60,712 bases of DNA from a candidate division WOR-3 bacterium (lineage in GTDB: Bacteria; SDB-A), in contig JAFGIG010000097.1 of NCBI GenBank assembly GCA_016929715.1, forward strand, positions 1-60,712. Direction: 5' to 3'. Below, piece by piece: positions 666 through 51,265 of this stretch. Both the position numbers and the translations under genes were made by a program. The notes beneath the pieces are model-generated. The model worked only from the letters and a program-made list of their open reading frames with translations. It was not told the DNA's origin and did no database searches. Within the stretch, counting starts at the first letter, position 1; every line of letters starts with the position of its first letter.

Positions 666-669
666 CCGA

Positions 670-1953: not shown

Positions 1954-2006
1954 TTATGCCTCCTTTTACTTTATGCATTGTCAATTTAACCCTAATCGGT
2001 CTTCTT

Positions 2007-9788: not shown

Positions 9789-9790
9789 AA

Positions 9791-10882
9791 TCACCTTATT
9801 TTCAGCGTGCTGATTCCTATGAGTGCAAACAATATCGCCAGAAGCCAGAATCTGACGACAATTTTGCTTTCGGGCAATCCGCACTTTTCAAAATGATGAT
9901 GTATGGGAGTCATCTTGAAAATCCTTTTTCCGCCTGTCATCTTAAAATACGAAACCTGAAGTATCACAGACAAAGCTTCCACAACAAAAACTCCGCCTAT
10001 AAAAACAAGTAAAATTTCCTGTTTTATTAAAACTGCCATCAAACCCAGAGCTCCGCCAAGTGAAAGCGAGCCTGTATCACCCATAAAGACCTGAGCGGGG
10101 TGAGCGTTAAACCATAAAAAACCAAGACAGGCTCCGAAGGCGGCGGCTCCGAAAACAGTGACTTCAGCCGCAAGCGGATCAAAACCTATATGCAGATACT
10201 GAGAAGCCTTGAAGTTACCTGCTATGTAGGAAACCACTGCAAATGATGCGAAAGAGGCCGCCAGAGAACCGGCTGCCAGTCCGTCCAAGCCGTCAGTAAT
10301 ATTGACTGAATTTGAAGCGCCGAGTATCACTGTTAAAATCAGAGGAATGTATAACCAACCAAAGTCAACTATTAAATTTTTTAGAAAAAGTGCGTGAGTC
10401 TGGGTGACTTTCAGATCTCCCCCGGAAGGAAACTTAAAGAGCATGAATCCTACAAAACCGGCGAGAAAGATTTGACCTATAAGTTTATATTTTCCTCTCA
10501 TTCCTTTTTTTCTTTTCATTTTCATCAGATCATCAAGAAATCCGAAAGTTCCGAGCCATATCATGGATGAAAGAAGAATAATTATGTTTCTGTTTGTCAA
10601 GTCGCCCCAGATAATCACCGATACAAGAATTGACACTACAATAAGAATTCCCCCCATTGAAGGCGTTCCGATTTTCTTTTCATGCCCTTCAGGAGTGAAT
10701 TCTCTCACTACGGAACCGGTTCTGTGTTTCTGCAGTTTTCTGATGACGTAAGGCCCGGCAAAAAATGATATAAAAAGCGCGGTTACAACTGCGTAAGCTG
10801 ACCTGAAAGTGATATAACCCAAGACGTTGAAGACTGAAAAAGTGTCTTTTAATCCGAAAAGGATCTTATACATTTCGACCAC
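9791..10882 (-). CDS. mraY: phospho-N-acetylmuramoyl-pentapeptide transferase
   Basis: NSVNITDGLDGLA and MGDTGSLSLGG motifs; 10-TM profile. Confidence 0.96.
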   Translation of the reverse strand: MVEMYKILFGLKDTFSVFNVLGYITFRSAYAVVTALFISFFAGPYVIRKLQKHRTGSVVREFTPEGHEKKIGTPSMGGILIVVSILVSVIIWGDLTNRNIIILLSSMIWLGTFGFLDDLMKMKRKKGMRGKYKLIGQIFLAGFVGFMLFKFPSGGDLKVTQTHALFLKNLIVDFGWLYIPLILTVILGASNSVNITDGLDGLAAGSLAASFASFAVVSYIAGNFKASQYLHIGFDPLAAEVTVFGAAAFGACLGFLWFNAHPAQVFMGDTGSLSLGGALGLMAVLIKQEILLVFIGGVFVVEALSVILQVSYFKMTGGKRIFKMTPIHHHFEKCGLPESKIVVRFWLLAILFALIGISTLKIR

Positions 10883-12212: not shown

Positions 12213-13666
12213 CCTGCCTCCTCGAGAGCCGCTCTTGCCTCTTCACTGTCATCGAACCTGAATTCCGTGACGCCTACTATCTGGCATATTTCATGCCCTT
12301 TGCCGCAGATAACCACTACTGAATTTTCAACGGCTTTATTAATCGCTTCCCTTATGGCTTCTTTTCTGTTTCTGATTACGAGCGGCTTTTTATTCATCCC
12401 AAGGATAATTTCTTCGATAATTTTTTCAGCGTCTTCGCGTCTGGGATTGTCGTCTGTCAATATAACTGTATCTGAGTAAGTTTCTGCAATTTTTCCCATA
12501 ATCGGCCTTTTTAGTCTGTCCCTTTCGCCTCCGCATCCGAATACAGTTATGAGCTTTGCCGGTTTTAGTCTCCTGAAGCTTAAAAGCAGATTTTCCATGG
12601 CATCCGGTGTGTGTGCAAAATCTACAAAAACACCGAAAGGAGCTCTGGATTTTATCTTCTGCATTCTGCCAGGAATCGTCTTAACAGATTCAAGGCCTGC
12701 CTTTATGCTCTGATGATCTATCCCTAACTTTACCGCGCAAGCAGAAGCTCCGACTGCGTTGAGAATATTTATCGCCCCCGGTATATTAAGTTTGATTTGG
12801 AAATCTGCACCCTCACCCCTTAGAAAAAAGCATGAGCCTTTGAAATCAGAATATATCTGATCCGCCCAGAAATCGGCTTTTTTCTCCATGGAATAAAAAT
12901 ATACGGGCTTGTCAGTAGATTTAGTTATTTCATCTTTTCTGCCGACAGATTCACTCACACATGAGAAGGATTTTTTTTTCATAAGTGAAAAAATACCGAG
13001 TTTCGCGTTGAAGTAAGACCTGAGGTCTCCATGCCAGTCAAGATGATCGTGTCCGAAACTTGAAAACACAACTGCGTCCAATTTCATGTATTTTGTGCGC
13101 CCCATGGAAAGAGCGTGAGATGAGACTTCAACCACGACATGCGTGGTTTTTTTGTTTTTCATTTTACCCAATAACCTCGCAATTTCGAGGGCTTGGGGAG
13201 TTGTATTATAGGCTTTTTCTTTTTCATCAGGAAAATAATGACCTGTAGTTCCTATCATACCTGAATTCAATCCTGCTCCATGAAACATTGACCTGAGCAT
13301 GAAAGACAAGGTGGTTTTGCCGTTTGTGCCTGTTACACCTGTTATAACGAGAGTCTTAACGGGATCATCATATATGAAATCGGCTATTTCCATCGCGGCT
13401 TTCTCCGGCTGTTTCGATAAAATCTGCGCGACAGGAAGATCTAATTCCACGAGTTTGTCCGAAAGAATCGCCGAAGCACCTTTTTCTATTGCTATTTTAG
13501 CCCACTCTCTCCCAGAAGAACTTTTTCCATCAAGAGCCGCGAATACATCACCCTTTTCAATTGTTCTTGAATCAGGGCCTATTCCGCCCACTTGTATATT
13601 TTCTGATTTTTCCCCGACAATTTCAATGGAAGGGAAGCGCAGGCGAATGTCTTTTAATGTCTTCAT
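12203..13666 (-). CDS. murE: UDP-N-acetylmuramoyl-L-alanyl-D-glutamate--2,6-diaminopimelate ligase
   Basis: GVTGTNGKTT P-loop plus the DNPR motif (LTDDNPRRED) typical of meso-DAP-adding MurE. Confidence 0.94.
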   Translation of the reverse strand: MKTLKDIRLRFPSIEIVGEKSENIQVGGIGPDSRTIEKGDVFAALDGKSSSGREWAKIAIEKGASAILSDKLVELDLPVAQILSKQPEKAAMEIADFIYDDPVKTLVITGVTGTNGKTTLSFMLRSMFHGAGLNSGMIGTTGHYFPDEKEKAYNTTPQALEIARLLGKMKNKKTTHVVVEVSSHALSMGRTKYMKLDAVVFSSFGHDHLDWHGDLRSYFNAKLGIFSLMKKKSFSCVSESVGRKDEITKSTDKPVYFYSMEKKADFWADQIYSDFKGSCFFLRGEGADFQIKLNIPGAINILNAVGASACAVKLGIDHQSIKAGLESVKTIPGRMQKIKSRAPFGVFVDFAHTPDAMENLLLSFRRLKPAKLITVFGCGGERDRLKRPIMGKIAETYSDTVILTDDNPRREDAEKIIEEIILGMNKKPLVIRNRKEAIREAINKAVENSVVVICGKGHEICQIVGVTEFRFDDSEEARAALEEAGWK

Positions 13667-14028
13667 AAATTTATTCTCGCGGTTTCTATTATGTTCATGG
13701 TTCCGATTATGTATCGGGTGATTTCCCTGAAAACGGGAGAAGCTACAGCTCCTCCGTAATAAACACCTTTCGGTTCTTCAATAACCACGCAGATTACGTA
13801 TGTAGGATCTTCAGCCGGAAAAAATCCTATAAAGGATGAAATATAAGCATCTTCAGTGTATCCGCCGCTTTCAGAAGCGATCTGAGCTGTTCCTGTCTTT
13901 CCCGCTACTTGCACACCCTGAATTCTAGCGTTTCTTCCAGTCCCTTCTTCCACTGCCATGACAAGGAGGTTTGTGAGAGTATCCGCCAAATCTTTTGAAA
14001 GCACTCTTCTTATCGTGTCTGTTTTTTT
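13663..14028 (-). CDS. ftsI: penicillin-binding protein 3 (FtsI), C-terminal fragment downstream of a frameshift
   Basis: Contains the KTGT motif (VAGKTGTAQ) and the end of the transpeptidase domain. ORF-track ORF 13663..14187 continues the upstream ftsI ORF in the -1 frame from the A7 run at 14022..14028; residues upstream of that run in this frame are not PBP-like. Confidence 0.8.
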   Translation of the reverse strand, partial: KKTDTIRRVLSKDLADTLTNLLVMAVEEGTGRNARIQGVQVAGKTGTAQIASESGGYTEDAYISSFIGFFPAEDPTYVICVVIEEPKGVYYGGAVASPVFREITRYIIGTMNIIETARINL

Positions 14029-15308
14029 ATCATCGTTCCTCTGACTGGCGACACGATGCTGTCGACGATTTTCGGCCTTATCAAAAATCCGCCGTTGGCA
14101 ACTGCGGCGTAAGCTGTTGCCATTTGCAGAGGAGTCACCGACAGTCCCTGCCCGAAAGAAATAGTAGCCAATCTGACATCCACCCACAGATTTTCGCTCG
14201 GAATACTTCCTCTTGCTTCATGCGGAAGGTCAATTTCCGTTTTTTCGCCGAAACCGAAGAGAAGAATATGCTTATACAAAACACTTTTACCTGTTCTTTT
14301 TGCGACATTGACCATTCCGACATTAGACGAATGAACAAAAGCTCCCCTGAAATCAAGAGGCCCATGCTTTTCAGCGTCTTTTATAATATAATCTCCGATT
14401 TGGACTCTGCATTCTCCCGTTTCCACTAGCTCATCTAGCTCTGTGGATCGCGAAGACAATGCTGCAGCAGCAGTTATCAGCTTGAAAGTAGAGCCGGGTT
14501 CATATTGCCAATCCACAGCCATGTTCAGATTCTTTCCGCCGATGGTAGCCATCGCTCTTACATCTCCCGTTCTGGGGTCCATAACGATTACGGAGCCTGA
14601 TTTTGCCGAATGATTTTCAACCGCTTTTCTCAGTGAGTTGTAGGCTATTTCCTGAATATCCATGTCTATGCTCAAATAGACGTCGTCGCCCCTGAACCTT
14701 GCCCCCTGAAGAGCTGAAGATCCGATATACATGTTTCCTTTTTGTGTCAATGACATCACTGTTGTGTCTTTTTCGCCTCTGAGGAACTTGTCGAATGTAT
14801 ATTCGATTCCTGACAAGCCTTTATTGGAAGGATCGACTGACCCAATGAGATTATTAAAGGCATGCTCTCTGCCGTAATATCTAATCTGATCATAATAAAC
14901 ACCTACTCCGGGAATCATTTCCCTTTTTACGGCACTGCATAATTCTTCCGGCGCATCTCTTTTTATCCAAGTAAAACCGTTTCTTCCCTCGATTGCATAG
15001 AGTATTTCCTCAAAGCTTGATACTCCCAACCTTTCTAAATCTCTCGCGCATTGGATTTTGTTATCGACGCTTTCGGGGTAGACAAAAATTGAAATTGCCT
15101 TGTGTGAATAAGCCACGCATCTGGATTTTCTGTCCAGAATGGACCCTCTGAGCATTTCCGGAGAAAAACTGTAAGCTGTGATTTCCCTCGCTTTTTGCCT
15201 GTATTCTTCTGACATGGCTACTTTACCCAGTTCAAGAGAGAACAAAACAAGCAAGGCGAAAGCTAAAACTGTAAGAATCTCAACCTTGGGATGCTTTTTT
15301 CTAATCAT
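14010..15308 (-). CDS. ftsI: penicillin-binding protein 3 (FtsI), N-terminal part (TM anchor, dimerisation domain, SxxK and SxN motifs)
   Basis: TM helix, PBP dimer domain, active-site STFK (EPGSTFKL) and SSN (HSSNVG). It terminates prematurely (..GTMIKKQTR*) straight after the A7 run. Confidence 0.9.
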   Translation of the reverse strand: MIRKKHPKVEILTVLAFALLVLFSLELGKVAMSEEYRQKAREITAYSFSPEMLRGSILDRKSRCVAYSHKAISIFVYPESVDNKIQCARDLERLGVSSFEEILYAIEGRNGFTWIKRDAPEELCSAVKREMIPGVGVYYDQIRYYGREHAFNNLIGSVDPSNKGLSGIEYTFDKFLRGEKDTTVMSLTQKGNMYIGSSALQGARFRGDDVYLSIDMDIQEIAYNSLRKAVENHSAKSGSVIVMDPRTGDVRAMATIGGKNLNMAVDWQYEPGSTFKLITAAAALSSRSTELDELVETGECRVQIGDYIIKDAEKHGPLDFRGAFVHSSNVGMVNVAKRTGKSVLYKHILLFGFGEKTEIDLPHEARGSIPSENLWVDVRLATISFGQGLSVTPLQMATAYAAVANGGFLIRPKIVDSIVSPVRGTMIKKQTR

Positions 15309-15597
15309 CTCTATAAATTTCCGTTTCGATTATTCGAATCGCCTTGTATTCTTGATTATTAACAAAAACAAACTCGAGAGTTTCAGCCAAACGCTTTACA
15401 AACGCGGCGGTAAAATACATGTCATCCATTTTTATCTGGGTTTTGAGGAGATCCTGATTTTTCCTGTCAATCTCTCTTTCCAATGAAAATGTTTCGTTTG
15501 CAAGAGCCATCACTTCAGATCTCTGCTTCACAGTCAAAAAAAACCCCGCAAATACTATTAGGGCGATAAAAGCCGAAAATGTCAGGATTTTTTTCAT
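15301..15597 (-). CDS. ftsL: cell division protein FtsL-like (single TM + coiled coil)
   Basis: About 98 aa, with N-terminal TM (ILTFSAFIALIVFAGFFL) followed by a heptad-rich segment. Conserved slot between rsmH and ftsI. Start set at MKKIL, just after the rsmH stop. Confidence 0.6.
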   Translation of the reverse strand: MKKILTFSAFIALIVFAGFFLTVKQRSEVMALANETFSLEREIDRKNQDLLKTQIKMDDMYFTAAFVKRLAETLEFVFVNNQEYKAIRIIETEIYRDD

Positions 15598-16478
15598 GTG
15601 CAAAACTCCGCGCACCTCAAATGAGCGCTTCTAGATTTTTTATTTTTGAGTTTTTCTTCTTTAGAAGGTTTAACAACCCGTCTAAAAAACCTTTTGGCTA
15701 TTTTTTCTTTTTCCCATTCGATCATTTTGTTTTTGACTATTGTATCCTCGACGGAGTGATATGATATAATTATGAATCTTGCCCCCGGTTTGAGCATTTG
15801 GGGTATTGTCTCCAGAAGCCCTGAGAGTTCTCCTATTTCGTCGTTGACCTCAATTCTGAATGATTGAAAAACCCGCGAAAGCCTTTTTGCGGCATCATGT
15901 CTAATGCCCTTTTTTCTGACAATTTCAACAAGATCTTCTGTGGTTTTAATATTATCTCTTTTTTCGAATATTGCTTTAGCTATGGCTTTAGTCCCGTCTC
16001 TTCTACCTGATAACGAAAGTATTTCACATAGCTTATCAAGAGAAGATTCCGAAAGAACGCTCTTGAGGCTTTTTTCTTGAGACGCGTCCATTTTCATGTC
16101 GAGAGGGGAGTTATTTTTATAACTAAAACCCCTGTCGGATTTAAGCTGCATATCAGACATCCCCAGATCGGCGAGGATTCCGTCAAAAACATTTTCACCA
16201 TCCATTTTTTTTATTTCTGAAAATTTGATGTGAAAATAATTTGTCACCGAAGAATAATCCGAGAGACGACTTTTAGCATAGTCCAAAGCTGAAGCGTCCC
16301 TGTCGACACAAGCCAAATATGAAGGCTTAAGGGACTTCAATATCCAGAAACTATGCCCTCCCTGTCCGACAGTGAGATCAGCAAATCTTCCGCCGTAGAA
16401 TTTGGAAAATAAAGCGACGACAAAAGGAGCCATTACCGGAACATGTTCATCTTTTAGAGATATTCCGGCAAATTTCAT
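15594..16478 (-). CDS. rsmH: 16S rRNA (cytosine1402-N4)-methyltransferase
   Basis: HVPVM, TVGQGGHS and ADLGMSDMQL motifs of RsmH/MraW. Confidence 0.95.
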   Translation of the reverse strand: MKFAGISLKDEHVPVMAPFVVALFSKFYGGRFADLTVGQGGHSFWILKSLKPSYLACVDRDASALDYAKSRLSDYSSVTNYFHIKFSEIKKMDGENVFDGILADLGMSDMQLKSDRGFSYKNNSPLDMKMDASQEKSLKSVLSESSLDKLCEILSLSGRRDGTKAIAKAIFEKRDNIKTTEDLVEIVRKKGIRHDAAKRLSRVFQSFRIEVNDEIGELSGLLETIPQMLKPGARFIIISYHSVEDTIVKNKMIEWEKEKIAKRFFRRVVKPSKEEKLKNKKSRSAHLRCAEFCT

Positions 16479-28631: not shown

Positions 28632-29498
28632 ATGGTAACTCCGTATTATATCGACGTCGGCTTCAAAGACGTCAGGGAAGGAATGTATGACAATTTCACC
28701 TTCGACACGGAAGGAATACCCCTATACAAGTATTCATGGGGTGTTGAATACAACCCTATTTTCATAGAGCATTACGCTCTGTATAACCTTCACATTTTTC
28801 TCCAGGAAAAAAAACAGGAAAAACTCGACGAATTTATGAGGGTAAGCAGATGGCTGTTAGATCATTGCAAGCCCCGCGGAGAGAGCTGTATCTATGAGTT
28901 TAGTTTTCCTCTCAAGCATCTCAACCTCAAGCCTCCGTGGATTTCGGCTATGGCGCAAGGCAGGGCGGCTTCGGTTTTCACGAGGGCTTATGAAGCGTCC
29001 GGAGACAGCCGTTACCTCGATGCCGCTCAGAAATCCATACTGCCGTTTTTCAAACCTGTCGGTGAGGGCGGTGTCAAAACCGAATTTCCCGACGGGTCCC
29101 CTGCTGTCGAAGAATACACATCAACGCCTAAAAGCCTCGTCCTGAACGGTATGATAGTGGCTCTTTTCGGTCTTTTTGATCTCTGCAGGTTCACCGTAGA
29201 TTCTTCTTTTTATAGGATCAAAGAAGAACTTGTCTCTTCATTGGAAAAAAATATCTTTCTTTACGACATGGGTTTCTGGACATACTATTCTCTTTTCAGA
29301 CACAAGCCCATAGCTAATTTGGACTATCACAGATATCATGTTTTACTTACTTGGAAACTTCACGAACTCACGGGAAAAAAGATTTTTTTAGAAAAAAGCC
29401 TTATATGGGATTCTTATCTGAATTCACCTTTTAAAATTCTCTCTCGTCATTTCATAAGATTTTTGCAGAAAACAGGTTCGAAATTAAATATTTTATGA
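28632..29498 (+). CDS. D-glucuronyl C5-epimerase C-terminal-domain-like protein
   Basis: PWISAMAQGRAASVFTRAYEASGDSRYLDAA..GGV..EEY..LVLNGMIVALFGLFDL resembles the C5-epimerase C-terminal (alpha/alpha)6-barrel family. Assignment is by eye. Confidence 0.6.
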   Translation: MVTPYYIDVGFKDVREGMYDNFTFDTEGIPLYKYSWGVEYNPIFIEHYALYNLHIFLQEKKQEKLDEFMRVSRWLLDHCKPRGESCIYEFSFPLKHLNLKPPWISAMAQGRAASVFTRAYEASGDSRYLDAAQKSILPFFKPVGEGGVKTEFPDGSPAVEEYTSTPKSLVLNGMIVALFGLFDLCRFTVDSSFYRIKEELVSSLEKNIFLYDMGFWTYYSLFRHKPIANLDYHRYHVLLTWKLHELTGKKIFLEKSLIWDSYLNSPFKILSRHFIRFLQKTGSKLNIL

Positions 29499-32400
29499 AC
29501 CCTCCATATTCAGATATAATTGACGATACAACTGCCAAAAAAACCGGATCAAAAAATAAACAAGAGCCAAAAATAAAAATGGCTCTTTTCTTCGCCGATC
29601 TGTCGGGCTTCACGCATATAGTAAGTAGTTTTTCCAAAAAAGGCAGAGAAGGCATGGAAGAAATAGCTAAAATCGTCAGTGATCTTTACGGGACTTTTAT
29701 TCAGGCTTATGAGCAGAACGGAGGTTTTTTCATTAACGCCGCCGGTGATTCCGTTTTGATATCACTTCCTTTCAACGCCGGATCAATAAACACAGTAAAA
29801 GAAGTCAACAAGAACCTGACCAAGATAATCAAATCCTATATATCTGAACAAGTAGGTCTCAAATCCGCTTTCATCTGCGAAGAATTCGTCTATACTCCTT
29901 ATTTTTGGAAAAACAACTACTTGTCCGTCATATCAGGCAAAGCGAAAGAAACCCTGTCTGGTCTTGATCTCGCCGATGGATCGATATTTTTTTACCCTTT
30001 AGTTCATCATCCGGATAGACAAAAACCATTTTCGAAAACGATATTTACAAAAAACATTTCTGTGATAAAAAACCCTGAACACAGAGTTGTAGTTTCAATG
30101 ATGATACAATCTCCGGCAATTTCAGTTTTAGATCTAAAAAAATACATAAAAAAAATCGATTATTTCATCAGCGCTCATAATGGAGAAATAAGCGATATAG
30201 ATTGCATCAATCGGGACGGCTTTAAGACTCTTGTTCTTTTTGGACACAGATCGGAAAATATTTCGGAATTCGAAGAAGTACTTGAATGCGCGCAGAGAAT
30301 TATTCAATCGAACATCTTCGGCTCCAACAGACCTAAAATAGGTATATCAGCCGGTTATGCCTATACCGGCATTCTCGACATAAAAGACAAGTCCAAATTC
30401 ATGGCAATAGGCGACGATATTAATCTTTCCGAAAGGCTCACCCGTATCGGCTCTCAGGGCGACATATATTTTTCAGATAAATTCAAAAGGCTTCTGTCTT
30501 CAAAAATAAAATGCCTTAAATCAAGATCCAGATATCTGCCCAAATATCCCGAGAAAATTGACTATTACCGATTCGAAAGCTACTCGAGGCCAGTTTCTGT
30601 TTTCATCGACAGAAACAGGGAAATGCGATCGGTTATAAGCCTTCTTGACAAAGGCTGCCGTTCAGTCCACTTGAAAGGCGACTCGGGGATAGGCAAATCA
30701 GCTTTATTATCCCGCCTTTCAGTAGAGTTGAACAAAGATTACAAAGTGGTCTTCATAAGAAAAGAACCCGGCGAAACGCCTCTGTTTCTTTCAGACTCTG
30801 CATCCATAGAATTAGGATACAATAAGGATTTTCAAAATATTTCTTCTCTTCCCCAATCGTCATGGCAATATGTTCTTCAGGACAGGATTATAAATAGTAT
30901 GAGAAAAAAATTCCCCTTTGCTCTTCTCATAGACGACGCTGAATTTAAAAGAATTGACATGTCTATTGTCAAAGCCATCCAGAAAATTCTCGGTCCCAGC
31001 AAAAGTGTCCTGATAATATCATCAAAACCTAATTTTTCATACAATGGTTTCGGAGAGATTCTGATTACGCCGCTGAAAAAGCGCAACACTCAAGAACTAC
31101 TTTCTTCCGGTTTCGGGGGTCGGCAAATAGATAATATTTTTCTTGATTATGTGATGGAAAAATCTAAAGGAAACCCGCTTTTTTCTCTCATGCTCATCAA
31201 TCATCTCGAAAACTTCGGATACTTAAAAGAAGAAAAATCAAAAATTTTTCTCAGAAAACAACCTGAAAAAATTCCCGAAAACCTCGCTTTCGTTTCGATG
31301 GCGAAGTTTAATTTGATGAGACCTGAAATGAAGAGAGCACTGAAATTCGCTTCAATCGCGGGATACAGTTTTAGTCCGGAAGTAATCAAAGAATTGACCG
31401 GTGATCAGGAAACCTCTCTTTATCTGTCACAAGCTGCTGCGGAAGGAATTCTGGAAATAAAAAAGGATATTTGCTTTTTCACTCAGCAATTCTTTAAAGA
31501 CGCTCTGTATGAATCCATTTTATCCAAAGAAAAAAAACAGACACATGAAAAGATCGCTGAAATCCTCTCCAGAAAGAGTTCAATTCAGGAATTTTCTCCG
31601 GGAGAAACGGCTTATCATTTCCATATGGCGGGTAATAAATCTAAAGCTATGCCTCTTTATTTTTGCGCGATAGGAAAGGCTGTTGCCGATAAAAAATCCG
31701 AAGAAGCATTAGGTTTGATAAAACTAGCGGAAGAGATAACCGATAATGAAAGCGAAATATACTTCCTTTACAAAAATAAAGCGGAAGCAAGTGTAATCGA
31801 GGGAAATTTTACCCTTTATGATTTCTACATAAACAAATGCGTCGCAAGGGCTAAAAAATTAAAAAACAAAGAGGAACTGGCTCGTTTATATACATCAAAA
31901 GGAATGAAAGAATATCTTAGATTAGATACGGTAAAATCCATTAAATATTTCAAAAAAGCCATGTCTTTCGCCTCGGGCGATAACCTGGATACAATTTATA
32001 TGCATATGTCCGATGTAAACTGGCGAATCGGCATGATTGAAGAATCAGAAAAATACTTGTTAAAACTTGAAGAATCCATATCTAAAAAACCTGATTCTTT
32101 TGTATATCCGGATTTTCTTCACAAAAAAGGATTACTCGCTTACGCAAGGGGTCAAATGGATGAAGCTCTATTCTATTTAAAACAAGCGCTGAATCTCGAC
32201 ACTGGTTTGTTTTTCAAGGAATTTTTGTGCAACGACATTGCGGAAGTGTATTATCTCAAAGGAAAAACCGCGAAGGCTATTGAGTTCATAAAAAAATCCA
32301 TGAGTTATTCCAAAAAAATCGGTTATGTATGGTCCATTTCTTATTCATTGCTTAATTATTCAATTTTTCTTTCACAGCTAAAACGCTATAGTGAATCCCT

Positions 32401-32794
32401 GAAAGTCATCGAAAAATGCTTAAAAATGACAGACATAGTTTATCCGCAGATAAACACGATAGCCCTGATAAACCGATTCCTGATAAACACCGAGTTTTCT
32501 TCGAAATTCGACCCGGAATCCGCTTGGAAGGAAATAAAAGGTTCAAAACACTACAAAAGCAACAGTCAGATAAAAGTATTCGCTGATTATGCGTGGGCTG
32601 TCTATCTTAAAAAAAGTTCCAGAAAAGCTGAGTTTAACAGGTTGGCGCCGAATCTTTTGAGACAGGCGAAAAAAATAAATCTGTCTCCAGGATCAGTCAC
32701 AGGCATATACATAGACATAAAAAAAATAGAAGACCTCACAAGACTTTCTCTAAAAGGGGCAAAAAGGAGGAAATATGATCCAAACCGGAATTAA
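29495..32794 (+). CDS. multidomain signalling protein: two tandem class III nucleotidyl-cyclase homology domains + STAND/AAA_16 P-loop NTPase + TPR array
   Basis: CHD1 has LFFADLSGFT and AGDSVLI. CHD2 has KIGISAGYAYTG and IGDDINLSERL. Walker A is GDSGIGKSALL and Walker B is ALLIDDAEF, followed by about 450 aa of TPR-like helices. Confidence 0.75.
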   Translation: MNPPYSDIIDDTTAKKTGSKNKQEPKIKMALFFADLSGFTHIVSSFSKKGREGMEEIAKIVSDLYGTFIQAYEQNGGFFINAAGDSVLISLPFNAGSINTVKEVNKNLTKIIKSYISEQVGLKSAFICEEFVYTPYFWKNNYLSVISGKAKETLSGLDLADGSIFFYPLVHHPDRQKPFSKTIFTKNISVIKNPEHRVVVSMMIQSPAISVLDLKKYIKKIDYFISAHNGEISDIDCINRDGFKTLVLFGHRSENISEFEEVLECAQRIIQSNIFGSNRPKIGISAGYAYTGILDIKDKSKFMAIGDDINLSERLTRIGSQGDIYFSDKFKRLLSSKIKCLKSRSRYLPKYPEKIDYYRFESYSRPVSVFIDRNREMRSVISLLDKGCRSVHLKGDSGIGKSALLSRLSVELNKDYKVVFIRKEPGETPLFLSDSASIELGYNKDFQNISSLPQSSWQYVLQDRIINSMRKKFPFALLIDDAEFKRIDMSIVKAIQKILGPSKSVLIISSKPNFSYNGFGEILITPLKKRNTQELLSSGFGGRQIDNIFLDYVMEKSKGNPLFSLMLINHLENFGYLKEEKSKIFLRKQPEKIPENLAFVSMAKFNLMRPEMKRALKFASIAGYSFSPEVIKELTGDQETSLYLSQAAAEGILEIKKDICFFTQQFFKDALYESILSKEKKQTHEKIAEILSRKSSIQEFSPGETAYHFHMAGNKSKAMPLYFCAIGKAVADKKSEEALGLIKLAEEITDNESEIYFLYKNKAEASVIEGNFTLYDFYINKCVARAKKLKNKEELARLYTSKGMKEYLRLDTVKSIKYFKKAMSFASGDNLDTIYMHMSDVNWRIGMIEESEKYLLKLEESISKKPDSFVYPDFLHKKGLLAYARGQMDEALFYLKQALNLDTGLFFKEFLCNDIAEVYYLKGKTAKAIEFIKKSMSYSKKIGYVWSISYSLLNYSIFLSQLKRYSESLKVIEKCLKMTDIVYPQINTIALINRFLINTEFSSKFDPESAWKEIKGSKHYKSNSQIKVFADYAWAVYLKKSSRKAEFNRLAPNLLRQAKKINLSPGSVTGIYIDIKKIEDLTRLSLKGAKRRKYDPNRN

Positions 32795-33285: not shown

Positions 33286-36200
33286 TTGTCCATAGGACAA
33301 AAAATGTTTAATAACGACATTCTTCACGAAGAAATTTTCAATTGCCTTCAAAAGCTTATTCTTGTATCAGACGAAAACGGAAATATTCTTTTTCATTCAA
33401 AAAATATAAAAAATACTTTCGGCACTCCTCCAGATTCGGTGGTCGGCAGAAACGTATTTGAATTCATTCACCCCGACGATTTGGTAAAAGCCCGGGGCTT
33501 CGTATCTCAAATACTCAATCCCGCGAAACCCTTCGTTTCATTCGATCTGAAAATTATCCTCGATTCCTCAGTGGAAAAATACGTTTCCGGACAGGCTAAA
33601 GACCTTCGAGAAAATCCCGAAATAGGGGGAATTTTAGTTTTGTATTCCGACATCAGCAGGGAAAAAAGCTCTCAAGAACTCCATAAAGCTGTTTTTTCCA
33701 TATCCGAAATGCTCAATCAGGCAGACGAAATTGACGTATTATTCGGGAGAATTCATGCTACGGTCAGCTCCCTTCTGCCTTCGGAAAATTTTTACATAGC
33801 CGTTCATGACACCGATAAAGACATACTCAGTTTCCCTTACTATATAGACCGTTTTGACACTAAGCCTCCAGCAAGAAAACTTTCCAACAGCTTGACAGAT
33901 TATGTTGTCCGGGAAGGGACTGCTCTTCTTCTGACGGGAAAAGACATAGATGAATTCTCCAGAGATAAAAACATTGTAGTTCAAGGGACAAAACCCTTCA
34001 GCTGGCTTGGAGTCCCTCTAAAATCACGGGGTGAAGTTCTCGGCGCTTTAGCGGTTCAGTCTTACGAAGAAAATCTGTCTTACGACATATTTCACAAAAA
34101 CATTCTCGAATTCGTATCAAACCACATATCAGCGGCGCTGGCGAAAAAACAAAGACATCTTAAAGAACTCGAATACAAACAATTTCTCGTTAAAATCATC
34201 GAAAACATTCCCCTTGCCCTTTTTGCGAAAGATATCGAAGGAAGATTCATAATGTGGAACAAAAAAAGCGAAGATTACTACGGATTGAAACAAAATCAGG
34301 TCATCGGAAGAACAGATTATGATTTTTTTCCGAAGGAACAGGCGGATTTTTTCACGCTGATGGACAAAAAAACGCTTCAATCGAATGAGGTTTACGATAT
34401 ACTTGAAGAACCTATCGATTCTCCAAAAATGGGAAGAAGAACTCTTCATACAATTAAAATTCCCGTCACCGACGAAAACGGAAATCCTTCTATTCTCCTT
34501 GGACTTTCCGAGGATATTTCAGAGAAAAAACTTAACGAAAGTATTTTAAGACTCCAGCATGAACTTGCAGTCAGGATAGGTAAAACAACAGATCTTCAAG
34601 AAGCCTTGAATTACATCCTTTTCATATCCATAGAATCCATTGAAGAGATAGACAGCGGCGCAATTTATCTTTTTGAACAGGACACCGGAGGAATTTCACT
34701 TGCGGTTCATTCAGGGTTTAAGGACGCGCTCTTAAAGAAAATAAGCTACTACGAAAAAGACAGCCCGATAGGAATTCTCGCGAGAAAAGAAATTCCTACT
34801 TTTCTGTCTGAAAAAGAATTCACTTCACACTTCGTGAACAACTTCAGAGAAGAAGGGATAAAATCTATATCAATCCTGCCAATATTTCATCTCGGCAACC
34901 CGATAGCTTGTCTGAATTTGTGCTCTCATTTAACTGACGAATTCAGCATTATTTCCAAAAGACTGCTCTCTCAAGTCGTTTCTTTTCTCGGAGATATTAT
35001 TACAAGAATACAGAATGACTTAAAGATACGAACCAGCGAATCGAAATTCAGAAGCACATTCGAAAACGCTCCAGTCGGCATGAGCATAATGGATTCTGAC
35101 GGCAGATATCTCGCTGTCAATAAATCACTTTGCGATATGCTGGGGTATTCAGAACGCGAATTGCTTAAAATGAAATTCGAAGACCTTACATATCCTGACG
35201 ATCTATACAAATCCCTTAAAAACCTCAACTCTCTCATGTTCGGGGAAAAAGAACACATCCAGTTTGAAAAACGCTACTATCACAAATCCGGCAAAGTGGT
35301 ATGGGTCCTGCTGAGTTCTTTCGCTTTCAGGGAAGGCGAAGAACCTTACGGACGCATAATTACTCATGTGATTGATGTCACCGAGAGAAAACAGATAGAA
35401 GATCAGCTCTCTAAAATGAGAAATCTTGAATCTCTGGGACTCCTTGCAGGCGGCATAGCCCACGACTTCAACAACATACTGACAACAATAAGCGGTAATA
35501 TTTCAATCGCAAATCTATACGCTCAGGAGGACTCTGAATTAAAAGAGAGCCTCACCGAAGCCGAAAAAGGAATAAAGAAGGCGACAGATCTGACACAACA
35601 GCTTCTGACTTTCGCAAAAGGCGGAGTCCCCGTGAAGGAAGCCTCTTCTATAGAGGAAATAATCAGGGATTCTTCAGGTTTTATATTAAGAGGAAAAGAT
35701 ATTAGCGTTGATTACCTTTTCGAAAAGAACCTGCGAATAGTCGACATCGACAAAGGCCAGTTTTCACAGGTAATTCAAAATCTCGTCTTAAATTCCGTTC
35801 AGGCAATGCCATACGGCGGGAAAATTAAAATCACAGCGAGCAATTATGACATGAACGAAGACAAACTCGAAATCTACAAATACCTTCGCTACCTCAAACC
35901 CGGAAAATACGTGAAAATTACGATTGCCGACACTGGAATGGGTATTCATGAAGAAGATATTCTCAAAATATTCGATCCTTACTTTACAACAAAAGAAGAC
36001 GGATCCGGGCTTGGTCTTTCGATAGTATATTCGATTATCAAAAACCACAGCGGAATAATCGAAGCAGAATCAAACCCCGGTCACGGCTCTTCTTTTCATA
36101 TTTTCATGCCCGCATCAGATGCTTTTTCTGTCGACAGAAAAGAAGTGAAAGAGCCCGGTATAATACGCGGCAGGGCAAACATTCTTCTTATGGACGATGA

Positions 36201-36540
36201 AGAAATGATAAGAAAAGTCACCTCAAAAATGCTTGAAGAACTCGGATATTATGTCGAAACGGCAAGAAACGGCGAAGAAGTTTTAGAGAAATTCAAGAAT
36301 GGGACAAAGACAAGCTTTGACCTCGTAATTCTCGATTTGACAGTTCAGGGGGGCATGGGCGGAAAAGACGCCGTCAAAGAAATTAAAAACCTATATCCTT
36401 CGATAAAAGCGATAGTCTCCAGCGGATATTCAAATGACATGGCGCTTTCCCATTACAGAGAATTCGGTTTTGACAACTATCTCGTAAAGCCTTTCACGCT
36501 CTCGGACCTTTCAGAAAAAATCACGGAAACTCTGCTATAA
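33286..36540 (+). CDS. hybrid sensor histidine kinase (PAS-GAF-PAS-GAF-PAS-HisKA-HATPase-REC)
   Basis: H-box GIAHDFNNILT; N/G boxes (NLVLNSVQAM, DTGMGI, GSGLGLS); C-terminal receiver (LLMDDEE..ILDLTVQGGMGG..KP). The start could instead be ATG 33304 rather than TTG 33286. Confidence 0.9.
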   Translation: MSIGQKMFNNDILHEEIFNCLQKLILVSDENGNILFHSKNIKNTFGTPPDSVVGRNVFEFIHPDDLVKARGFVSQILNPAKPFVSFDLKIILDSSVEKYVSGQAKDLRENPEIGGILVLYSDISREKSSQELHKAVFSISEMLNQADEIDVLFGRIHATVSSLLPSENFYIAVHDTDKDILSFPYYIDRFDTKPPARKLSNSLTDYVVREGTALLLTGKDIDEFSRDKNIVVQGTKPFSWLGVPLKSRGEVLGALAVQSYEENLSYDIFHKNILEFVSNHISAALAKKQRHLKELEYKQFLVKIIENIPLALFAKDIEGRFIMWNKKSEDYYGLKQNQVIGRTDYDFFPKEQADFFTLMDKKTLQSNEVYDILEEPIDSPKMGRRTLHTIKIPVTDENGNPSILLGLSEDISEKKLNESILRLQHELAVRIGKTTDLQEALNYILFISIESIEEIDSGAIYLFEQDTGGISLAVHSGFKDALLKKISYYEKDSPIGILARKEIPTFLSEKEFTSHFVNNFREEGIKSISILPIFHLGNPIACLNLCSHLTDEFSIISKRLLSQVVSFLGDIITRIQNDLKIRTSESKFRSTFENAPVGMSIMDSDGRYLAVNKSLCDMLGYSERELLKMKFEDLTYPDDLYKSLKNLNSLMFGEKEHIQFEKRYYHKSGKVVWVLLSSFAFREGEEPYGRIITHVIDVTERKQIEDQLSKMRNLESLGLLAGGIAHDFNNILTTISGNISIANLYAQEDSELKESLTEAEKGIKKATDLTQQLLTFAKGGVPVKEASSIEEIIRDSSGFILRGKDISVDYLFEKNLRIVDIDKGQFSQVIQNLVLNSVQAMPYGGKIKITASNYDMNEDKLEIYKYLRYLKPGKYVKITIADTGMGIHEEDILKIFDPYFTTKEDGSGLGLSIVYSIIKNHSGIIEAESNPGHGSSFHIFMPASDAFSVDRKEVKEPGIIRGRANILLMDDEEMIRKVTSKMLEELGYYVETARNGEEVLEKFKNGTKTSFDLVILDLTVQGGMGGKDAVKEIKNLYPSIKAIVSSGYSNDMALSHYREFGFDNYLVKPFTLSDLSEKITETLL

Positions 36541-42732: not shown

Positions 42733-44202
42733 ATGAAATTTTTATCGGCGATTTTCATTTTCACCAGCCTTTGCCTCCATGGAGCCTTTGTGGATTACTC
42801 TTCCGCTTACCGCGCCGCTCAGGCAAAATTATCGAGCGACAAGATGACCGGACTGCACGCTTTTTCAAGTTCCATAGTCATCATGAGCACTTCCTCTTCA
42901 GACACTCTCGCTTATGCTTTCGAGCTGAATCCGACTGGATACATCATAGTTACGGCGGACGACGAACTTTTTCCGATTATAGCGTATTCCTATGATAACG
43001 GATGCAGAGCCTCAGACGAAGAGGACAATATACTTTTCAGTCTTGTCAGGAGAGATATTGAGCTGAAAAAAGCCGGCCAAAACGAAATTCCGCCATCCGT
43101 CCTTTTAAGGTTCAAATCTCAGTGGAAATCCCTTCTCGAGGAAAACCGCGAACAAATGAATTTTCCCATTTTCGAACAGTGGCCCCCCGCCGGCTCTACT
43201 CCGACAGGCGGATGGCTAATGTCCAACTGGACTCAGAATTCTCCATACAATAGTATGTGCCCTATTGACCCGCAGACAAGCCTGAGAAGCCTGGCAGGCT
43301 GCCCGGCCGTCGCCATGGGCATGATAGTCAATTATCATGAGGAAATCCATGGAACCAGATTTTCCGACACCGACGACTACTACCATTCATACGCAGGCAG
43401 AAATTACTGGATAGACGACGATTGGGCTGTCAGGGGATTCCCTTCCTGGAGCCAGCTCAACGTCTATCTCGACACCCTCGAAAACCATTATTCTTATGGA
43501 GTGACTCCGACAAATCAGGACAAAGCGGCTCTTGTATGGGCATGCGGTGCTGCGATGAGACAGGTCTACACGAGCGGCGGCTCAGGAACTTTCGGAGCCA
43601 CACAAGCTCTCAACGCATACATAAAATTTGGATACGGCGACTGTTCTCCTCTCGACACTCTTTCCGACAGCCTTTACGAAAGGCTGTCTCAAAACATGAA
43701 AGACGGCATGCCGGCGCACATCACCGCTCTTACGCCTCCTCCGGTTCAGGGTCATAATTTCGTAATTGACGGATACAACACAAATGACTACTACCATCTC
43801 AATATGGGTTGGGGCGGGACATACAACGGCTGGTATATAATCCCGGACAGTATTCCCTACAACCTTACCGTCATAGATACAATCATAATAGACATAGGAG
43901 AACCCTTAAACTTCGTCGAAGAGTTGCCCTCCGGCGGCTTTTTTGCTGAATTCGAGCGCAATTCTTTCTACTTGACCCCGGAAAACCCTTTAATATTATT
44001 CTCCTTCACCTGTCAGGGCTCAGCGCAGGTAAGTATCTACGATATTACGGGAAGACTTGCGCAACCGACTGAAAAAATTTTCATTGAAAAAGGTTCAAAC
44101 CTCTACAGGGTCAATATAGAGGACTTGCCTGCCGGAGCGTATGTGTTAAGCGTTTACTCTGAAAAAGGTTGCTCTAACTGCAGGTTTACGTATCTGAAAT
44201 AA
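42733..44202 (+). CDS. C10-family (streptopain/SpeB-like) cysteine peptidase with Spi-type propeptide and T9SS/FlgD-Ig-type C-terminal domain
   Basis: Propeptide pattern (LAYAFELNPTGYIIVTADDELFPIIAYS); catalytic Cys context WTQNSPYN..AGCPAVAMGMIVNYH; His context GHNFVIDGYN..YYHLNMGWGG. C-terminal tail (IYDITGRL..LPAGAYVLSVYS). Confidence 0.8.
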   Translation: MKFLSAIFIFTSLCLHGAFVDYSSAYRAAQAKLSSDKMTGLHAFSSSIVIMSTSSSDTLAYAFELNPTGYIIVTADDELFPIIAYSYDNGCRASDEEDNILFSLVRRDIELKKAGQNEIPPSVLLRFKSQWKSLLEENREQMNFPIFEQWPPAGSTPTGGWLMSNWTQNSPYNSMCPIDPQTSLRSLAGCPAVAMGMIVNYHEEIHGTRFSDTDDYYHSYAGRNYWIDDDWAVRGFPSWSQLNVYLDTLENHYSYGVTPTNQDKAALVWACGAAMRQVYTSGGSGTFGATQALNAYIKFGYGDCSPLDTLSDSLYERLSQNMKDGMPAHITALTPPPVQGHNFVIDGYNTNDYYHLNMGWGGTYNGWYIIPDSIPYNLTVIDTIIIDIGEPLNFVEELPSGGFFAEFERNSFYLTPENPLILFSFTCQGSAQVSIYDITGRLAQPTEKIFIEKGSNLYRVNIEDLPAGAYVLSVYSEKGCSNCRFTYLK

Positions 44203-48850: not shown

Positions 48851-50506
48851 TTAAAGAGAAAGATGCTGATACAGGTCGCCGTCTCTAAAACCGAGTTTTC
48901 TGTAATAGTTCCTCGTCCCCACAGCAGAGATTACAGAAATGACAGAACACCCGCATGAGGAGGACAATTCTGAGGCTGTCTGTATCAGTTTTCTGCCTAT
49001 TCCCCTGTGTTGGCTTTTGCCATTATTTTTTTCTCCTATCACCGCCGTGTTGCCGTAAACGTGAAGCTCCCTGATAAGGCCGGATTTCTTCACTTCGGGC
49101 ACGAAATTTCTGCTTTCTTCAGCTTCCTCGCGAGAGTGTTCGCTTGGAACCGAAAGCCTGAGAAATCCGGCCAACCTTCCTTTCGAATCGGTGCATTGAA
49201 TAAAATGCTCTACGAAAGGCTCGCATTGGTATGCAGTATCAGAAAAAAAGAGTCCTCCTTCGGGAGTTTTTCCCCTAATTTCACGGTTTCTTATGTTGAC
49301 ATCTTTCAAGCCTTTCTCTTTTATCTCATTTTCTACTCTTTCTCTCAAATTGTTTGAGGGCGAATTATCGACAGTGTCCGTGGATGGGATGTCCCTTATA
49401 ACCCTTGAAATTCTGCAGTAAAGCGGCGTTTGGGATATAAAGGAAGCGACAAGCCTGACGAGAGTCTCTTTACTGTAGTATCTGAACTCGCCTTTTTTAA
49501 GCATTTCATTGAGAGGGCTCCCTTTTACAACCATCAACGGGTATATTTTCACTTCGTCGGGTATGAAAGGAGGCGAGAAAAGTTTTCTGTAGGTCATAAG
49601 GTCTTTTGCCGGATCCGATCCGGGTAAATTCAACATCACGTGGGCTTGAATCTTAAATCCCGCAGATCTCATCAAGAAAAACGCTCTTTCAATATCTTTA
49701 CTTTTCATGCCGACTTTATTCTTTTTAAGCACTTCCTCATCGAGAGACTGGACACCGGATTGAATTTTTGTGCATCCCAGCCTCCTTAGAAATATGAGCT
49801 CTCTCTCGTCAATCATGTCTGCTCTGGTCTCAAAAGAAAGTCCGACGCACCTGTTTTTTGCGTCTTCATTCAATTTCTGCTCGTGTAAAAGGGCGTCAAT
49901 TTTCTCAAGAACCGGGGGGCTTTTTTTTTCTTCTCCGCTTCTATCATCGCTGTGATCGTTCAGCGCTTCAAAAATCGCCCTTGAAAAATCAATTCTGTAT
50001 TCATCTTCGTAACTTCCGAAAGAGCCTCCGAGAACAATAATTTCGCACTTTCCCGTTTCATGTCCTGTGTTTAGAAGAGCTTTCAAACGGCTCGACGTCT
50101 GTTTATATGGATCGAAGCCGTTTTCAAGCGCTCTCATCGAACCCGGCTCACTGGATAAATAACTTTTAGGCATATTCTCCTCATCAGGGCAGAATATGCA
50201 TTTTCCCGGGCAGGGATTGGGTTTTGTCATGACCGCGACAGACACGATTCCGGAAGAACTTCTCGTCGGTTTTGTTCTCAGCGTTTCTTCAATTATTTTA
50301 TTCGGTTCAATTTTTCTCTCTTGAACCATTTCCCTGTAACATCCGAGTAATTGAGCTTTTGAGAAAAATCCTCCTTCTTCTTTTGAATATTTCCTGAGAA
50401 TTTTTTTTATTTTTTTTTCATCCGGAGATTCAACCCCAGAAATTGCCAGAACCGCGCAAGAGAGTTGACTCAGATTTTTTTTTGTGTATTGATTTTCATA
50501 TTTCAT
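48851..50506 (-). CDS. elp3: Elp3-family radical SAM + GNAT enzyme (tRNA U34 cm5 modification type)
   Basis: KPTRSSSGIVSVAVMTKPNPCPGKCIFCPDE (radical SAM CxxxCxxC in the Elp3 context), SYLSSEPGSMRA and FDPYKQ motifs. C-terminal GNAT with the Elp3-type QHRGIGRKL motif. Confidence 0.85.
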   Translation of the reverse strand: MKYENQYTKKNLSQLSCAVLAISGVESPDEKKIKKILRKYSKEEGGFFSKAQLLGCYREMVQERKIEPNKIIEETLRTKPTRSSSGIVSVAVMTKPNPCPGKCIFCPDEENMPKSYLSSEPGSMRALENGFDPYKQTSSRLKALLNTGHETGKCEIIVLGGSFGSYEDEYRIDFSRAIFEALNDHSDDRSGEEKKSPPVLEKIDALLHEQKLNEDAKNRCVGLSFETRADMIDERELIFLRRLGCTKIQSGVQSLDEEVLKKNKVGMKSKDIERAFFLMRSAGFKIQAHVMLNLPGSDPAKDLMTYRKLFSPPFIPDEVKIYPLMVVKGSPLNEMLKKGEFRYYSKETLVRLVASFISQTPLYCRISRVIRDIPSTDTVDNSPSNNLRERVENEIKEKGLKDVNIRNREIRGKTPEGGLFFSDTAYQCEPFVEHFIQCTDSKGRLAGFLRLSVPSEHSREEAEESRNFVPEVKKSGLIRELHVYGNTAVIGEKNNGKSQHRGIGRKLIQTASELSSSCGCSVISVISAVGTRNYYRKLGFRDGDLYQHLSL

Positions 50507-50536
50507 CGTTTGATTTTAGCATAAAATTGTTTTTAT

Positions 50537-51265
50537 ATGACATGGGAGATTATGAACAAATATGTTTTGCTAAACAGAATGTTTTATGATTATAATGCCT
50601 CTTTTTTTTCTTCTTCGAGGAGCAGAGCCGAACTAGATAAAATCCTTAAATTTTGCCGTTTATTGCCGGCGTCAGGATTTTATAATGTTCTCGACCTCGG
50701 ATGCGGAGAAGGAAAATTGCTGTTTTATTTTTCAGAGTTTGCAAATCCAGAAAATTTTTACTACATCGGAATCGACCAGAGTTTACAAATGATCAAAAAA
50801 GGCATTTCGAGCCTGGGCAGAGTCCTGAATGCCGGTTTTATAAACGCCTATGTGAGCAGTGATTTTCTAAAAACAATTGATATCCGGTTCAGCCTTGTCG
50901 CCGCTCTCGGTCTTTTTCACCACATTCCGGACCAGAAGGAAAGAGAAAATATAGTCAATCAGATATGCCGGTTGACAGGAAAAGACGGAACCGCTGTTAT
51001 TTCGCTATGGAATTTCGAGACATCAAAAATACGGATACTGGCGAATGTAAAAGACAAATCCGGAACACCCAAAAAAGGGGATTATCTTCTGGGCTACGCA
51101 AACAGCCGGATACCCCGTTTCTGTCACAGTTTCGACTCAGAAGAAATCGGGGAAATCAGGAAAATATTCAAATCCCGAGGCTTTGAAACCCGAAAATTTA
51201 GGATAATCAGAAACAATAATTCATGCGACTTTATTCTTTGGGCAAAAAATCTATCATCAAATTAA
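50537..51265 (+). CDS. class I SAM-dependent methyltransferase, Trm9/ALKBH8-MT-like
   Basis: FYDYNASFFSSSRSR (cf. Trm9 YxxIAxHFSxTR); VLDLGCGEGKLL motif I; LGLFHHIPDQKERENIVNQICRLTGKDGTAVISLWNFE (cf. Trm9 IAVxHHxSTxERRxxxIxxxxRxLxxGGxALIYxWALE). Divergent from elp3 with a 30-bp gap. Confidence 0.6.
   Translation: MTWEIMNKYVLLNRMFYDYNASFFSSSRSRAELDKILKFCRLLPASGFYNVLDLGCGEGKLLFYFSEFANPENFYYIGIDQSLQMIKKGISSLGRVLNAGFINAYVSSDFLKTIDIRFSLVAALGLFHHIPDQKERENIVNQICRLTGKDGTAVISLWNFETSKIRILANVKDKSGTPKKGDYLLGYANSRIPRFCHSFDSEEIGEIRKIFKSRGFETRKFRIIRNNNSCDFILWAKNLSSN

Follow-up and report, generated by a model that had tools for sequence, protein, structure and literature searches.

In eukaryotes, Elongator and the methyltransferases Trm9-Trm112 or ALKBH8-TRMT112 make 5-methoxycarbonylmethyluridine at the tRNA wobble position (mcm5U34) and its 2-thiolated form (mcm5s2U34). 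In archaea, Elp3 and Trm9-like genes cluster, for example in Sulfolobus solfataricus (PMC6144793, PMC5372719), and the Elp3 enzymes of Methanocaldococcus infernus and the bacterium Dehalococcoides mccartyi have been found to carry out tRNA-dependent acetyl-CoA hydrolysis and formation of 5-carboxymethyluridine (cm5U34) (PMC6367351). According to one review, the Trm9-Trm112 modification is absent from bacteria (PMC4615748), and a 2026 paper states that "numerous bacteria" have Elp3 (PMC13315578). Here, we analyzed a DNA stretch of 60,712 nucleotides (hereafter the window) from a candidate division WOR-3 bacterium (contig JAFGIG010000097.1, assembly GCA_016929715.1), which carries two divergent genes, one identified as Elp3 and the other encoding a Trm9-like methyltransferase that uses S-adenosylmethionine (SAM). 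We consider it fairly likely that the locus is a two-gene module modifying the tRNA wobble uridine, in which Elp3 would generate cm5U34 and the Trm9-like enzyme would convert it to mcm5U34.

As in the eukaryotic pathway, the Elp3 of the window combines radical SAM and lysine acetyltransferase (KAT) domains and has the cluster cysteines and the acetyl-CoA motif; unlike that pathway, the window contains neither Elp1, Elp2 and Elp4-6 nor a nearby Trm112, the two genes are physically paired, and the host is bacterial. The archaeal systems (Haloferax HVO_1032 with Trm112 and the S. solfataricus cluster), which we set beside the window by their published descriptions, also have a stand-alone Elp3 with an N-terminal extension. 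However, archaeal Trm9 works with Trm112 and has a narrow reported distribution (Sulfolobales, Halobacteriales), whereas the bacterial pair is widespread. The MnmL (YtqA)/MnmM (YtqB) operon of Firmicutes likewise encodes an Elp3-like radical SAM protein together with a SAM methyltransferase, both of which modify U34 at its C5 side chain, but MnmL lacks a KAT domain and acts downstream of MnmEG, while MnmM methylates an amine (5-aminomethyl, nm5, to 5-methylaminomethyl, mnm5) and not a carboxylate. Similarly, CmoM (8JOZ), the carboxyl methyltransferase of 5-carboxymethoxyuridine (cmo5U34), is a bacterial class I enzyme that methyl-esterifies a U34 side-chain carboxylate. It differs in that the profile of the family studied here scored 38 bits against CmoM compared with 54 for Trm9, its partners CmoA and CmoB are not linked to the window locus, and the family is tied to Elp3.

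The reverse-strand gene is, by its sequence features, almost certainly Elp3. Translation placed both open reading frames (ORFs) of the pair where an earlier, sequence-only reading of the window had put them and recovered all of the motifs that it had quoted: the Elp3 ORF carries KPNPCPGKCIFCPDE, with CPGKCIFC inside, SYLSSEPGSMRA and QHRGIGRKL, the last fitting the acetyl-CoA-binding pattern Q/RxxGxG/A. The Elp3 identity claimed by that reading was confirmed by profile search, as TIGR01211, the Elp3 model, matched with 421 bits against a cutoff of 350, residues 31-546 covering model positions 15-517 of 522. The Pfam domains Radical_SAM, Radical_SAM_C and GNAT were found as well, the GNAT matches (residues 496-542) being weak, as is typical for Elp3. 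Elp3 structures in the PDB, the human and yeast proteins included, were matched at E = 4e-83 to 2e-70; the closest was M. infernus Elp3 (E = 4e-83), and D. mccartyi Elp3 (DmcElp3) was matched at E = 7e-82. Moreover, the protein has every invariant column of a 32-sequence Elp3 alignment, including C99, C103, C106, Q499, H500, G502 and G504. Its N-terminal extension, a part of Elp3 linked to tRNA binding (PMC6367351), is conserved and is absent from DmcElp3.

On the opposite strand lies the methyltransferase gene, for which the sequence-only reading had given 242 amino acids and a distance of 30 bp to Elp3. These values hold for the maximal ORF (50537-51265). Because a relative with 74% identity (L001) has an in-frame TGA right after the upstream ATG, and because gene callers start the gene at the second ATG (237 amino acids), a start at 50552, and with it a 237-amino-acid protein and a 45-bp spacer, is likeliest. 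Sigma-70-like sites in this spacer showed no enrichment over shuffled sequences. The ORF contains FFSSSR, VLDLGCGEG, LFHHIPDQKER and GTAVISLWNFE, and the protein scored 216 bits against a hidden Markov model (HMM) of its family. An AlphaFold2 (AF2) model with a mean predicted local distance difference test score (pLDDT) of 90.9 showed the Rossmann-type strand order. Homologues of the window protein were few (31 matches); beyond two relatives their identity did not exceed 33%, and some of the distant ones came from Chloroflexi and the candidate phyla radiation (CPR). Public annotation describes the family merely as "class I SAM-dependent methyltransferase," and the Joint Genome Institute gives the label TRM9 to two distant members.

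We then asked how often the two genes occur together. The family HMM separated members (≥99 bits) from generic methyltransferases (≤75 bits), and a scan of reference genomes (GTDB) with the family alignment returned 51 loci, 37 with family members and 14 with generic methyltransferases that served as controls. Elp3 was found within 10 kb of 32 of the 37 members and within 2 kb of 31, nearly always head-to-head, while none of the 14 generic loci had it at either distance. In the opposite direction, we scanned metagenomes with an Elp3 alignment and kept the 65 loci with enough upstream sequence, chosen on Elp3 alone. A family methyltransferase was encoded directly upstream on the opposite strand in 46 of them, and partial matches were present at three truncated loci. 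When one of the four main Elp3 clades is set aside, 42 of 47 loci in the other three have the pair. Thus, the co-occurrence with Elp3 in other genomes that the sequence-only reading had made a check of its proposal was found in both searches.

The pair is kept in the clade of the window (L001, L002 and L143) with length and position conserved; this is uninformative, however, because the whole 12-kb neighborhood is syntenic there. More distant members are encoded in unrelated surroundings: two proteins only 27-28% identical to the window methyltransferase (P0012 and P0018) are head-to-head with Elp3, about 18 bp apart, in a wholly different gene context. Carriers include Anaerolineae and other Chloroflexota, Saccharibacteria, WWE3, Dojkabacteria, Kuenenbacteria and Parcubacteria/Paceibacterota, as well as Myxococcales (Myxococcota), Fermentibacteria (Fermentibacterota), Thermoanaerobaculia of the Acidobacteriota (among them Ca. 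Multivorans) and metagenome-assembled genomes (MAGs) of Gammaproteobacteria. The sole archaeal MAG with a family member (L032) does not have Elp3 adjacent to it. Pairwise identities of Elp3 and of the methyltransferase co-vary over 79 loci (Spearman 0.81), a value to which shared species history contributes. Because the pairing recurs in unrelated neighborhoods, in many phyla and in both search directions, it is far beyond chance, and Elp3 and the methyltransferase are very probably functionally coupled.

All-against-all clustering of neighboring genes, in which Trm112, an Ncs6/TtuA-type thiolase and a Urm1-like protein were sought, revealed no third recurrent gene at the pair loci; the top additional clusters represented shadow ORFs lying within Elp3 or housekeeping genes specific to a lineage. 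Where the two genes are further apart, a gene specific to the lineage is inserted. All four Acidobacteriota loci (L018, L026, L045 and L048) have an oxidoreductase of the short-chain dehydrogenase/reductase (SDR) family (about 260-300 amino acids) at this place, and a single Chloroflexi MAG (L005) has a CysH-type reductase between an Elp3 fragment and the methyltransferase. The CysH-type protein, a PAPS_reduct match at 406-1158(-) of L005, was considered as a thiolation enzyme and rejected, as it has the CysH-type ECGLH motif and occurs in one Chloroflexi lineage only.

Next, we compared the active site of the family with that of yeast Trm9, in which mutations of R29, D72, H116, W145, W168, R241, Y243 and N271 abolish function (Létoquart et al., PMC4678810). 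In the same work, Y18 and H115 were implicated in cm5U binding, and Y243 and N271 were proposed to bind tRNA and the uracil ring. The yeast sequence used was validated: 17 of 17 residues named in that paper were at their published positions, and the sequence matched the Trm9 structure 5CM2 with E = 4.5e-71. Residues were counted in 90 nonredundant family members after deletion of the yeast insertion from the alignment, and the 15 nearest non-family methyltransferases from the same scan served as controls. The equivalents of Y18, R29, H115 and H116 were each kept in 88 of the 90 members, W145 in 89, D72 in 87, R241 in 86, R123 in 84, and H244 and E250 in 83 each; W168 was kept in 75, with F or Y in another 10. 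R29, R123 and W145 were found in none of the 15 controls, and neither was the β-hairpin motif, in which the family sequence DYLLDW...RYVHHF aligns with yeast DVFVPW...RYYHLY and corresponds to two strands of the AF2 model (residues 173-180 and 189-192). A plain HH was present in 5 of the 15 controls and thus is not diagnostic alone. Likewise, the class I fold, motif I and the D72 equivalent, which the family has, are not specific to Trm9.

The window methyltransferase itself retains the equivalents of Y18, R29, D72, H115, H116, W145, R241 and H244. Its family shares with eukaryotic Trm9 the hairpin pattern DΦΦΦxW...RYxH but lacks the yeast insertion, and Y243 and N271 vary within this subfamily. 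All eight residues essential in yeast are nevertheless found in a member of the family from Saccharibacteria. Thus, the Trm9-like character that the sequence-only reading had drawn from the N-terminal and HH segments gained support from the conservation of R29 (in the FS.TR block), H115/H116, W145 and R241 (in the RY.H hairpin) in the family, with R29 and W145 absent from its nearest non-family relatives, and from the linkage to Elp3 in both directions.

D. mccartyi provides a bridge to the one bacterial Elp3 whose biochemistry has been studied. The DmcElp3 sequence, mostly rebuilt from a PDB alignment, led to the native protein (P0155) and its locus. Like the Elp3 of the window, DmcElp3 (PDB 5L7J, 5L7L and 6IA6) is a bacterial stand-alone enzyme with a Trm9-like methyltransferase encoded divergently 43 bp upstream; unlike the 551-residue window protein, it is a short form of 459 amino acids without the N-terminal extension. 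A second Dehalococcoidia genome (L145) has the same divergent arrangement, and a third (L146) lacks it. On the window-family HMM, the methyltransferases of D. mccartyi (L144) and L145 scored 64 and 85 bits, respectively, and thus represent a sister subfamily. The D. mccartyi enzyme has a more canonical Trm9 active site than that of the window. Both Dehalococcoidia proteins matched yeast Trm9 in BLASTP (E = 1.8e-11 for D. mccartyi and 7.3e-15 for its relative), and all eight residues essential in yeast are kept in them, including LVPW, RYY(R/H)L and RN. At the sequence level, the partners grade from canonical Trm9-like proteins into the divergent form of the window, every one attached to Elp3. 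The Elp3 literature searched contained no mention of the methyltransferase neighbor in D. mccartyi. A QueH gene and a GNAT gene are located some 2 kb upstream of the D. mccartyi pair. The short form of Elp3 (about 460 amino acids, D. mccartyi type) makes up a very large clade, with 7,331 of the scored candidate proteins reaching E ≤ 1e-100, and is no peculiarity of a single genus.

Building on the Elp3 identity, the statistical linkage across phyla and the residue conservation observed here, the pathway could proceed as follows. The stand-alone Elp3 would bind tRNA, as suggested by its family membership and the published biochemistry of the archaeal and D. mccartyi enzymes, and would cleave SAM at the [4Fe-4S] cluster held by C99, C103 and C106 to give a 5'-deoxyadenosyl radical. 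The acetyl group of acetyl-CoA, bound at the QHRGIGRKL site, would then be transferred to C5 of U34, yielding cm5U34. Subsequently, the Trm9-like enzyme would use SAM to form a methyl ester on the cm5 carboxylate, producing mcm5U34, a step to which the linkage and the active-site conservation point. The equivalents of R29, H116 and R241 may orient the carboxylate, while that of W145 may stack on the base. We regard the conversion of cm5U to mcm5U as the probable chemistry of the partner methyltransferase.

Several observations weigh against this assignment. Pfam returned only the generic models Methyltransf_11/12/23/25/31 for the methyltransferase, with no MnmM-type match, and NCBIfam gave sub-threshold matches only; neither collection has a Trm9-specific model. 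In a single-sequence search of the PDB, Yarrowia Trm9 (5CM2) ranked 11th (E = 0.085), and the best matches were phosphoethanolamine and natural-product methyltransferases. With the family profile, Trm9 came 4th: its match covered only the N-terminal two-thirds, and the single-domain score, 52.6 bits, was about that of the best single-domain match. In a Foldseek search with the AF2 model, it came 6th, among near-identical E-values. Because Trm9 was near the top but never uniquely first, we did not use these ranks as evidence either way. The alignment of the family with yeast Trm9 by hhalign reached a probability of 98.8% over 198 columns, spanning the yeast insertion; since 2 of the 15 control methyltransferases outscored yeast Trm9 in the same calibration, it does not discriminate and was dropped as well. 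Identity between window-family methyltransferases and yeast Trm9 is 19-28%, and overall similarity neither supports nor refutes the Trm9 assignment. The window methyltransferase also departs from yeast Trm9 at three essential positions, with Y for W168, C for Y243 and no clear equivalent of N271, and its C terminus carries an insertion specific to its clade. In addition, eukaryotic and archaeal Trm9 require Trm112, and a crude motif test together with neighbor clustering turned up nothing Trm112-like, gene or motif, in the window itself or across 142 loci. One Elp3 clade (cluster 9) lacks an adjacent methyltransferase, and the methyltransferase-free loci are concentrated there. Last, a 2020 review confined bacterial Elp3 to Dehalococcoides and reported no direct evidence of 5-carboxymethyluridine-type (xcm5U34) derivatives (PMC7663514).

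It is conceivable, though unlikely, that the methyltransferase is coupled to Elp3 but performs another chemistry, for example by methylating these tRNAs at a different atom or position or by acting on some other side chain made by Elp3, so that the product would not be mcm5U. The residues proposed to bind tRNA and the uracil ring are poorly kept in the window subfamily (Y243 in 13 of 90 members and N271 in 53), and the enzyme is globally no closer to Trm9 than to small-molecule methyltransferases. Moreover, yeast trm9 mutants are reported to accumulate 5-carbamoylmethyluridine (ncm5U) and not cm5U (PMC3110198), so the order of the steps in vivo is not fully settled even in eukaryotes. On the other hand, the carboxylate residues R29, H116 and R241 and the U34-stacking W145 are almost invariant, and the full Trm9 set is present in the sister subfamilies of Dehalococcoidia and Saccharibacteria, which argues for the same ancestral chemistry. 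A related and quite improbable alternative is that the family methylates cm5U but the copy in the window has drifted and is weakened, neofunctionalized or inactive. In the clade of the window, W168 is replaced by Y and Y243 by C, there is no clear equivalent of N271, and the C terminus is altered by a clade-specific insertion. The methyltransferase also evolves much faster than Elp3 (39% versus 60% identity between the window and L002, where it lies at 6001-6711), and this divergence together with the replacements could reflect relaxed or shifted constraint. Nevertheless, the ORF is intact, with length and position conserved in three diverged relatives (L001, L002 and L143); the protein retains the SAM motifs, R29, HH, W145 and R241, its AF2 model is of high confidence, and the tyrosine in place of W168 is still aromatic.

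Two further explanations appear very improbable. If the pair were an MnmL/MnmM-type system, it would complete the MnmEG pathway by converting 5-carboxymethylaminomethyl-2-thiouridine (cmnm5s2U) to 5-methylaminomethyl-2-thiouridine (mnm5s2U). TIGR01212, the MnmL/YtqA model, does match the Elp3 of the window in part, but with 76 bits against a cutoff of 180, while the Elp3 model exceeds its own cutoff. The window protein has a full GNAT/KAT domain with the acetyl-CoA motif, whereas MnmL, at about 330 amino acids, has no KAT domain, and the Pfam matches of the methyltransferase are generic, with none of the MnmM type. An accidental neighborhood, in which an unrelated small-molecule or housekeeping methyltransferase lies beside Elp3 through local synteny only, could draw on the syntenic 12 kb in the clade of the window and on the nature of the best PDB matches. 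It is effectively refuted by the linkage statistics, as the pair recurs in many phyla with unrelated flanks and in both search directions, and control methyltransferases are never found beside Elp3.

At the cluster 9 Elp3 loci (L063, L064, L070, L074, L076, L079, L083 and others), no Trm9-like methyltransferase is encoded within 5 kb, and the neighbors are RecO, Ndk and a sugar transferase. For these Elp3 proteins, either the partner was lost or moved, or the end product is different (cm5U or ncm5U).

The statement in the sequence-only reading that Elp3 is found in few bacteria proved outdated, as our searches returned thousands of homologues, many of them from bacterial MAGs, and the complete, self-contained pathway that it suggested goes beyond what was observed. 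In contrast to the reviews, the data show that Elp3 is common in uncultivated bacterial lineages and usually travels with a Trm9-like methyltransferase. In the full-text literature searched, neither a bacterial Trm9 homologue nor a bacterial Elp3/Trm9 gene pair was described, which is not proof of absence; the bacterial Elp3/Trm9 module thus appears to be undescribed and widespread, and we place it within a known pathway rather than regard it as a novel type of system. Whether a mobile Elp3/Trm9-like module gives at least six bacterial phyla mcm5U34 without the Elongator accessory subunits, and possibly without Trm112, is in our estimate evenly balanced. Judging by the distribution of the genes, these phyla would include most of the sampled CPR/Patescibacteria groups, Chloroflexota, Acidobacteriota and candidate phyla of the FCB (Fibrobacterota-Chlorobiota-Bacteroidota) group, and the module might replace or coexist with the MnmEG pathway. 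If true, this would overturn the textbook statement that bacteria have no mcm5U and identify the long-missing downstream partner of D. mccartyi Elp3. With the pair, what bacterial Elp3 produces in vivo can be tested directly through two small genes, and structural studies of cm5U recognition gain a simpler Trm9 that may not depend on Trm112. The pair would also improve the annotation of thousands of MAG proteins, and it bears on wobble decoding in reduced CPR genomes and on the origin of the Elongator pathway by vertical inheritance or inter-domain transfer.

Table 1. Coordinates of the Elp3/methyltransferase pair in the window, of its motifs and of the corresponding pair in D. mccartyi (aa, amino acids).
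Feature	Position	Strand	Basis or remark
Elp3, 551 aa, radical SAM and GNAT/KAT domains, N-terminal extension	48851..50506	-	TIGR01211, Pfam and PDB matches, alignment
Acetyl-CoA-binding motif QHRGIGRKL of the KAT/GNAT domain	48986..49012	-	translation checked; alignment
Radical SAM [4Fe-4S] cluster motif CPGKCIFC (C99, C103, C106)	50189..50212	-	translation checked; cysteines invariant
AT-rich divergent spacer between start codons, 45 bp	50507..50551	.	read directly; start reassigned from relatives
Trm9-like class I SAM methyltransferase, 237 aa, predicted cm5U34 carboxyl methyltransferase	50552..51265	+	family HMM, linkage, AF2 model
N-terminal block FYDYNASFFSSSR, equivalent to yeast Trm9 Y18...F25-S26..R29	50582..50620	+	R29 is the proposed carboxylate-orienting Arg
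SAM-binding motif I VLDLGCGEG	50687..50713	+	invariant D, G and G in family alignment; translation checked
LFHHIPDQKER, equivalents of H115/H116 followed by conserved ER	50912..50944	+	H116 essential in yeast Trm9
ISLWNFE, equivalent of W145 (proposed to stack on U34)	50999..51019	+	family versus control counts
β-hairpin GDYLLGY...RFCH, equivalent to yeast DVFVPW168...R241-Y242-Y243-H244	51077..51127	+	alignments, AF2 strands
D. mccartyi methyltransferase	L144 9283-9957 (CP019867.1 567446-568120)	-	224 aa, class I, 43 bp upstream of Elp3
D. mccartyi Elp3 (DmcElp3)	L144 10001-11380 (CP019867.1 568164-569543)	+	structurally characterized

The window, a single contig of the genome, is otherwise typical of a diderm bacterial chromosome (GC content about 42%) and holds genes for KdsA, PFK, a C10 peptidase and two ABC exporters as well as a dcw cell-division cluster. 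Scans of the window found no tRNA genes or Rfam families, and no further wobble-uridine genes, MnmE and MnmG included, were found within its 60 kb. The dcw cluster is intact from mraW to ftsZ (670-16478) except for ftsI, the penicillin-binding protein transpeptidase gene, which is split into two overlapping ORFs, 13663-14187(-) and 14010-15308(-). Their matches to the Transpeptidase domain span profile positions 1-192 and 192-298, and the split may reflect a pseudogene, a frameshift or an error in sequencing. The peptidase gene at 42733-44202(+) encodes a secreted, streptopain-like Peptidase_C10 protein with an Inhibitor_I69 prodomain and a weak match to Por_Secre_tail, the type IX secretion system (T9SS) sorting domain; its orthologue in L143 has the same architecture, a hint that the window derives from a candidate phylum of the FCB group. 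Finally, two large signaling proteins are encoded at 29495-32794(+) (1,099 amino acids, STAND-like, with weak cyclase, AAA_16 and TPR matches) and at 33286-36540(+) (1,084 amino acids, a hybrid histidine kinase with GAF, PAS, HisKA, HATPase and receiver domains), with a small AhpC/TSA peroxiredoxin gene between them.

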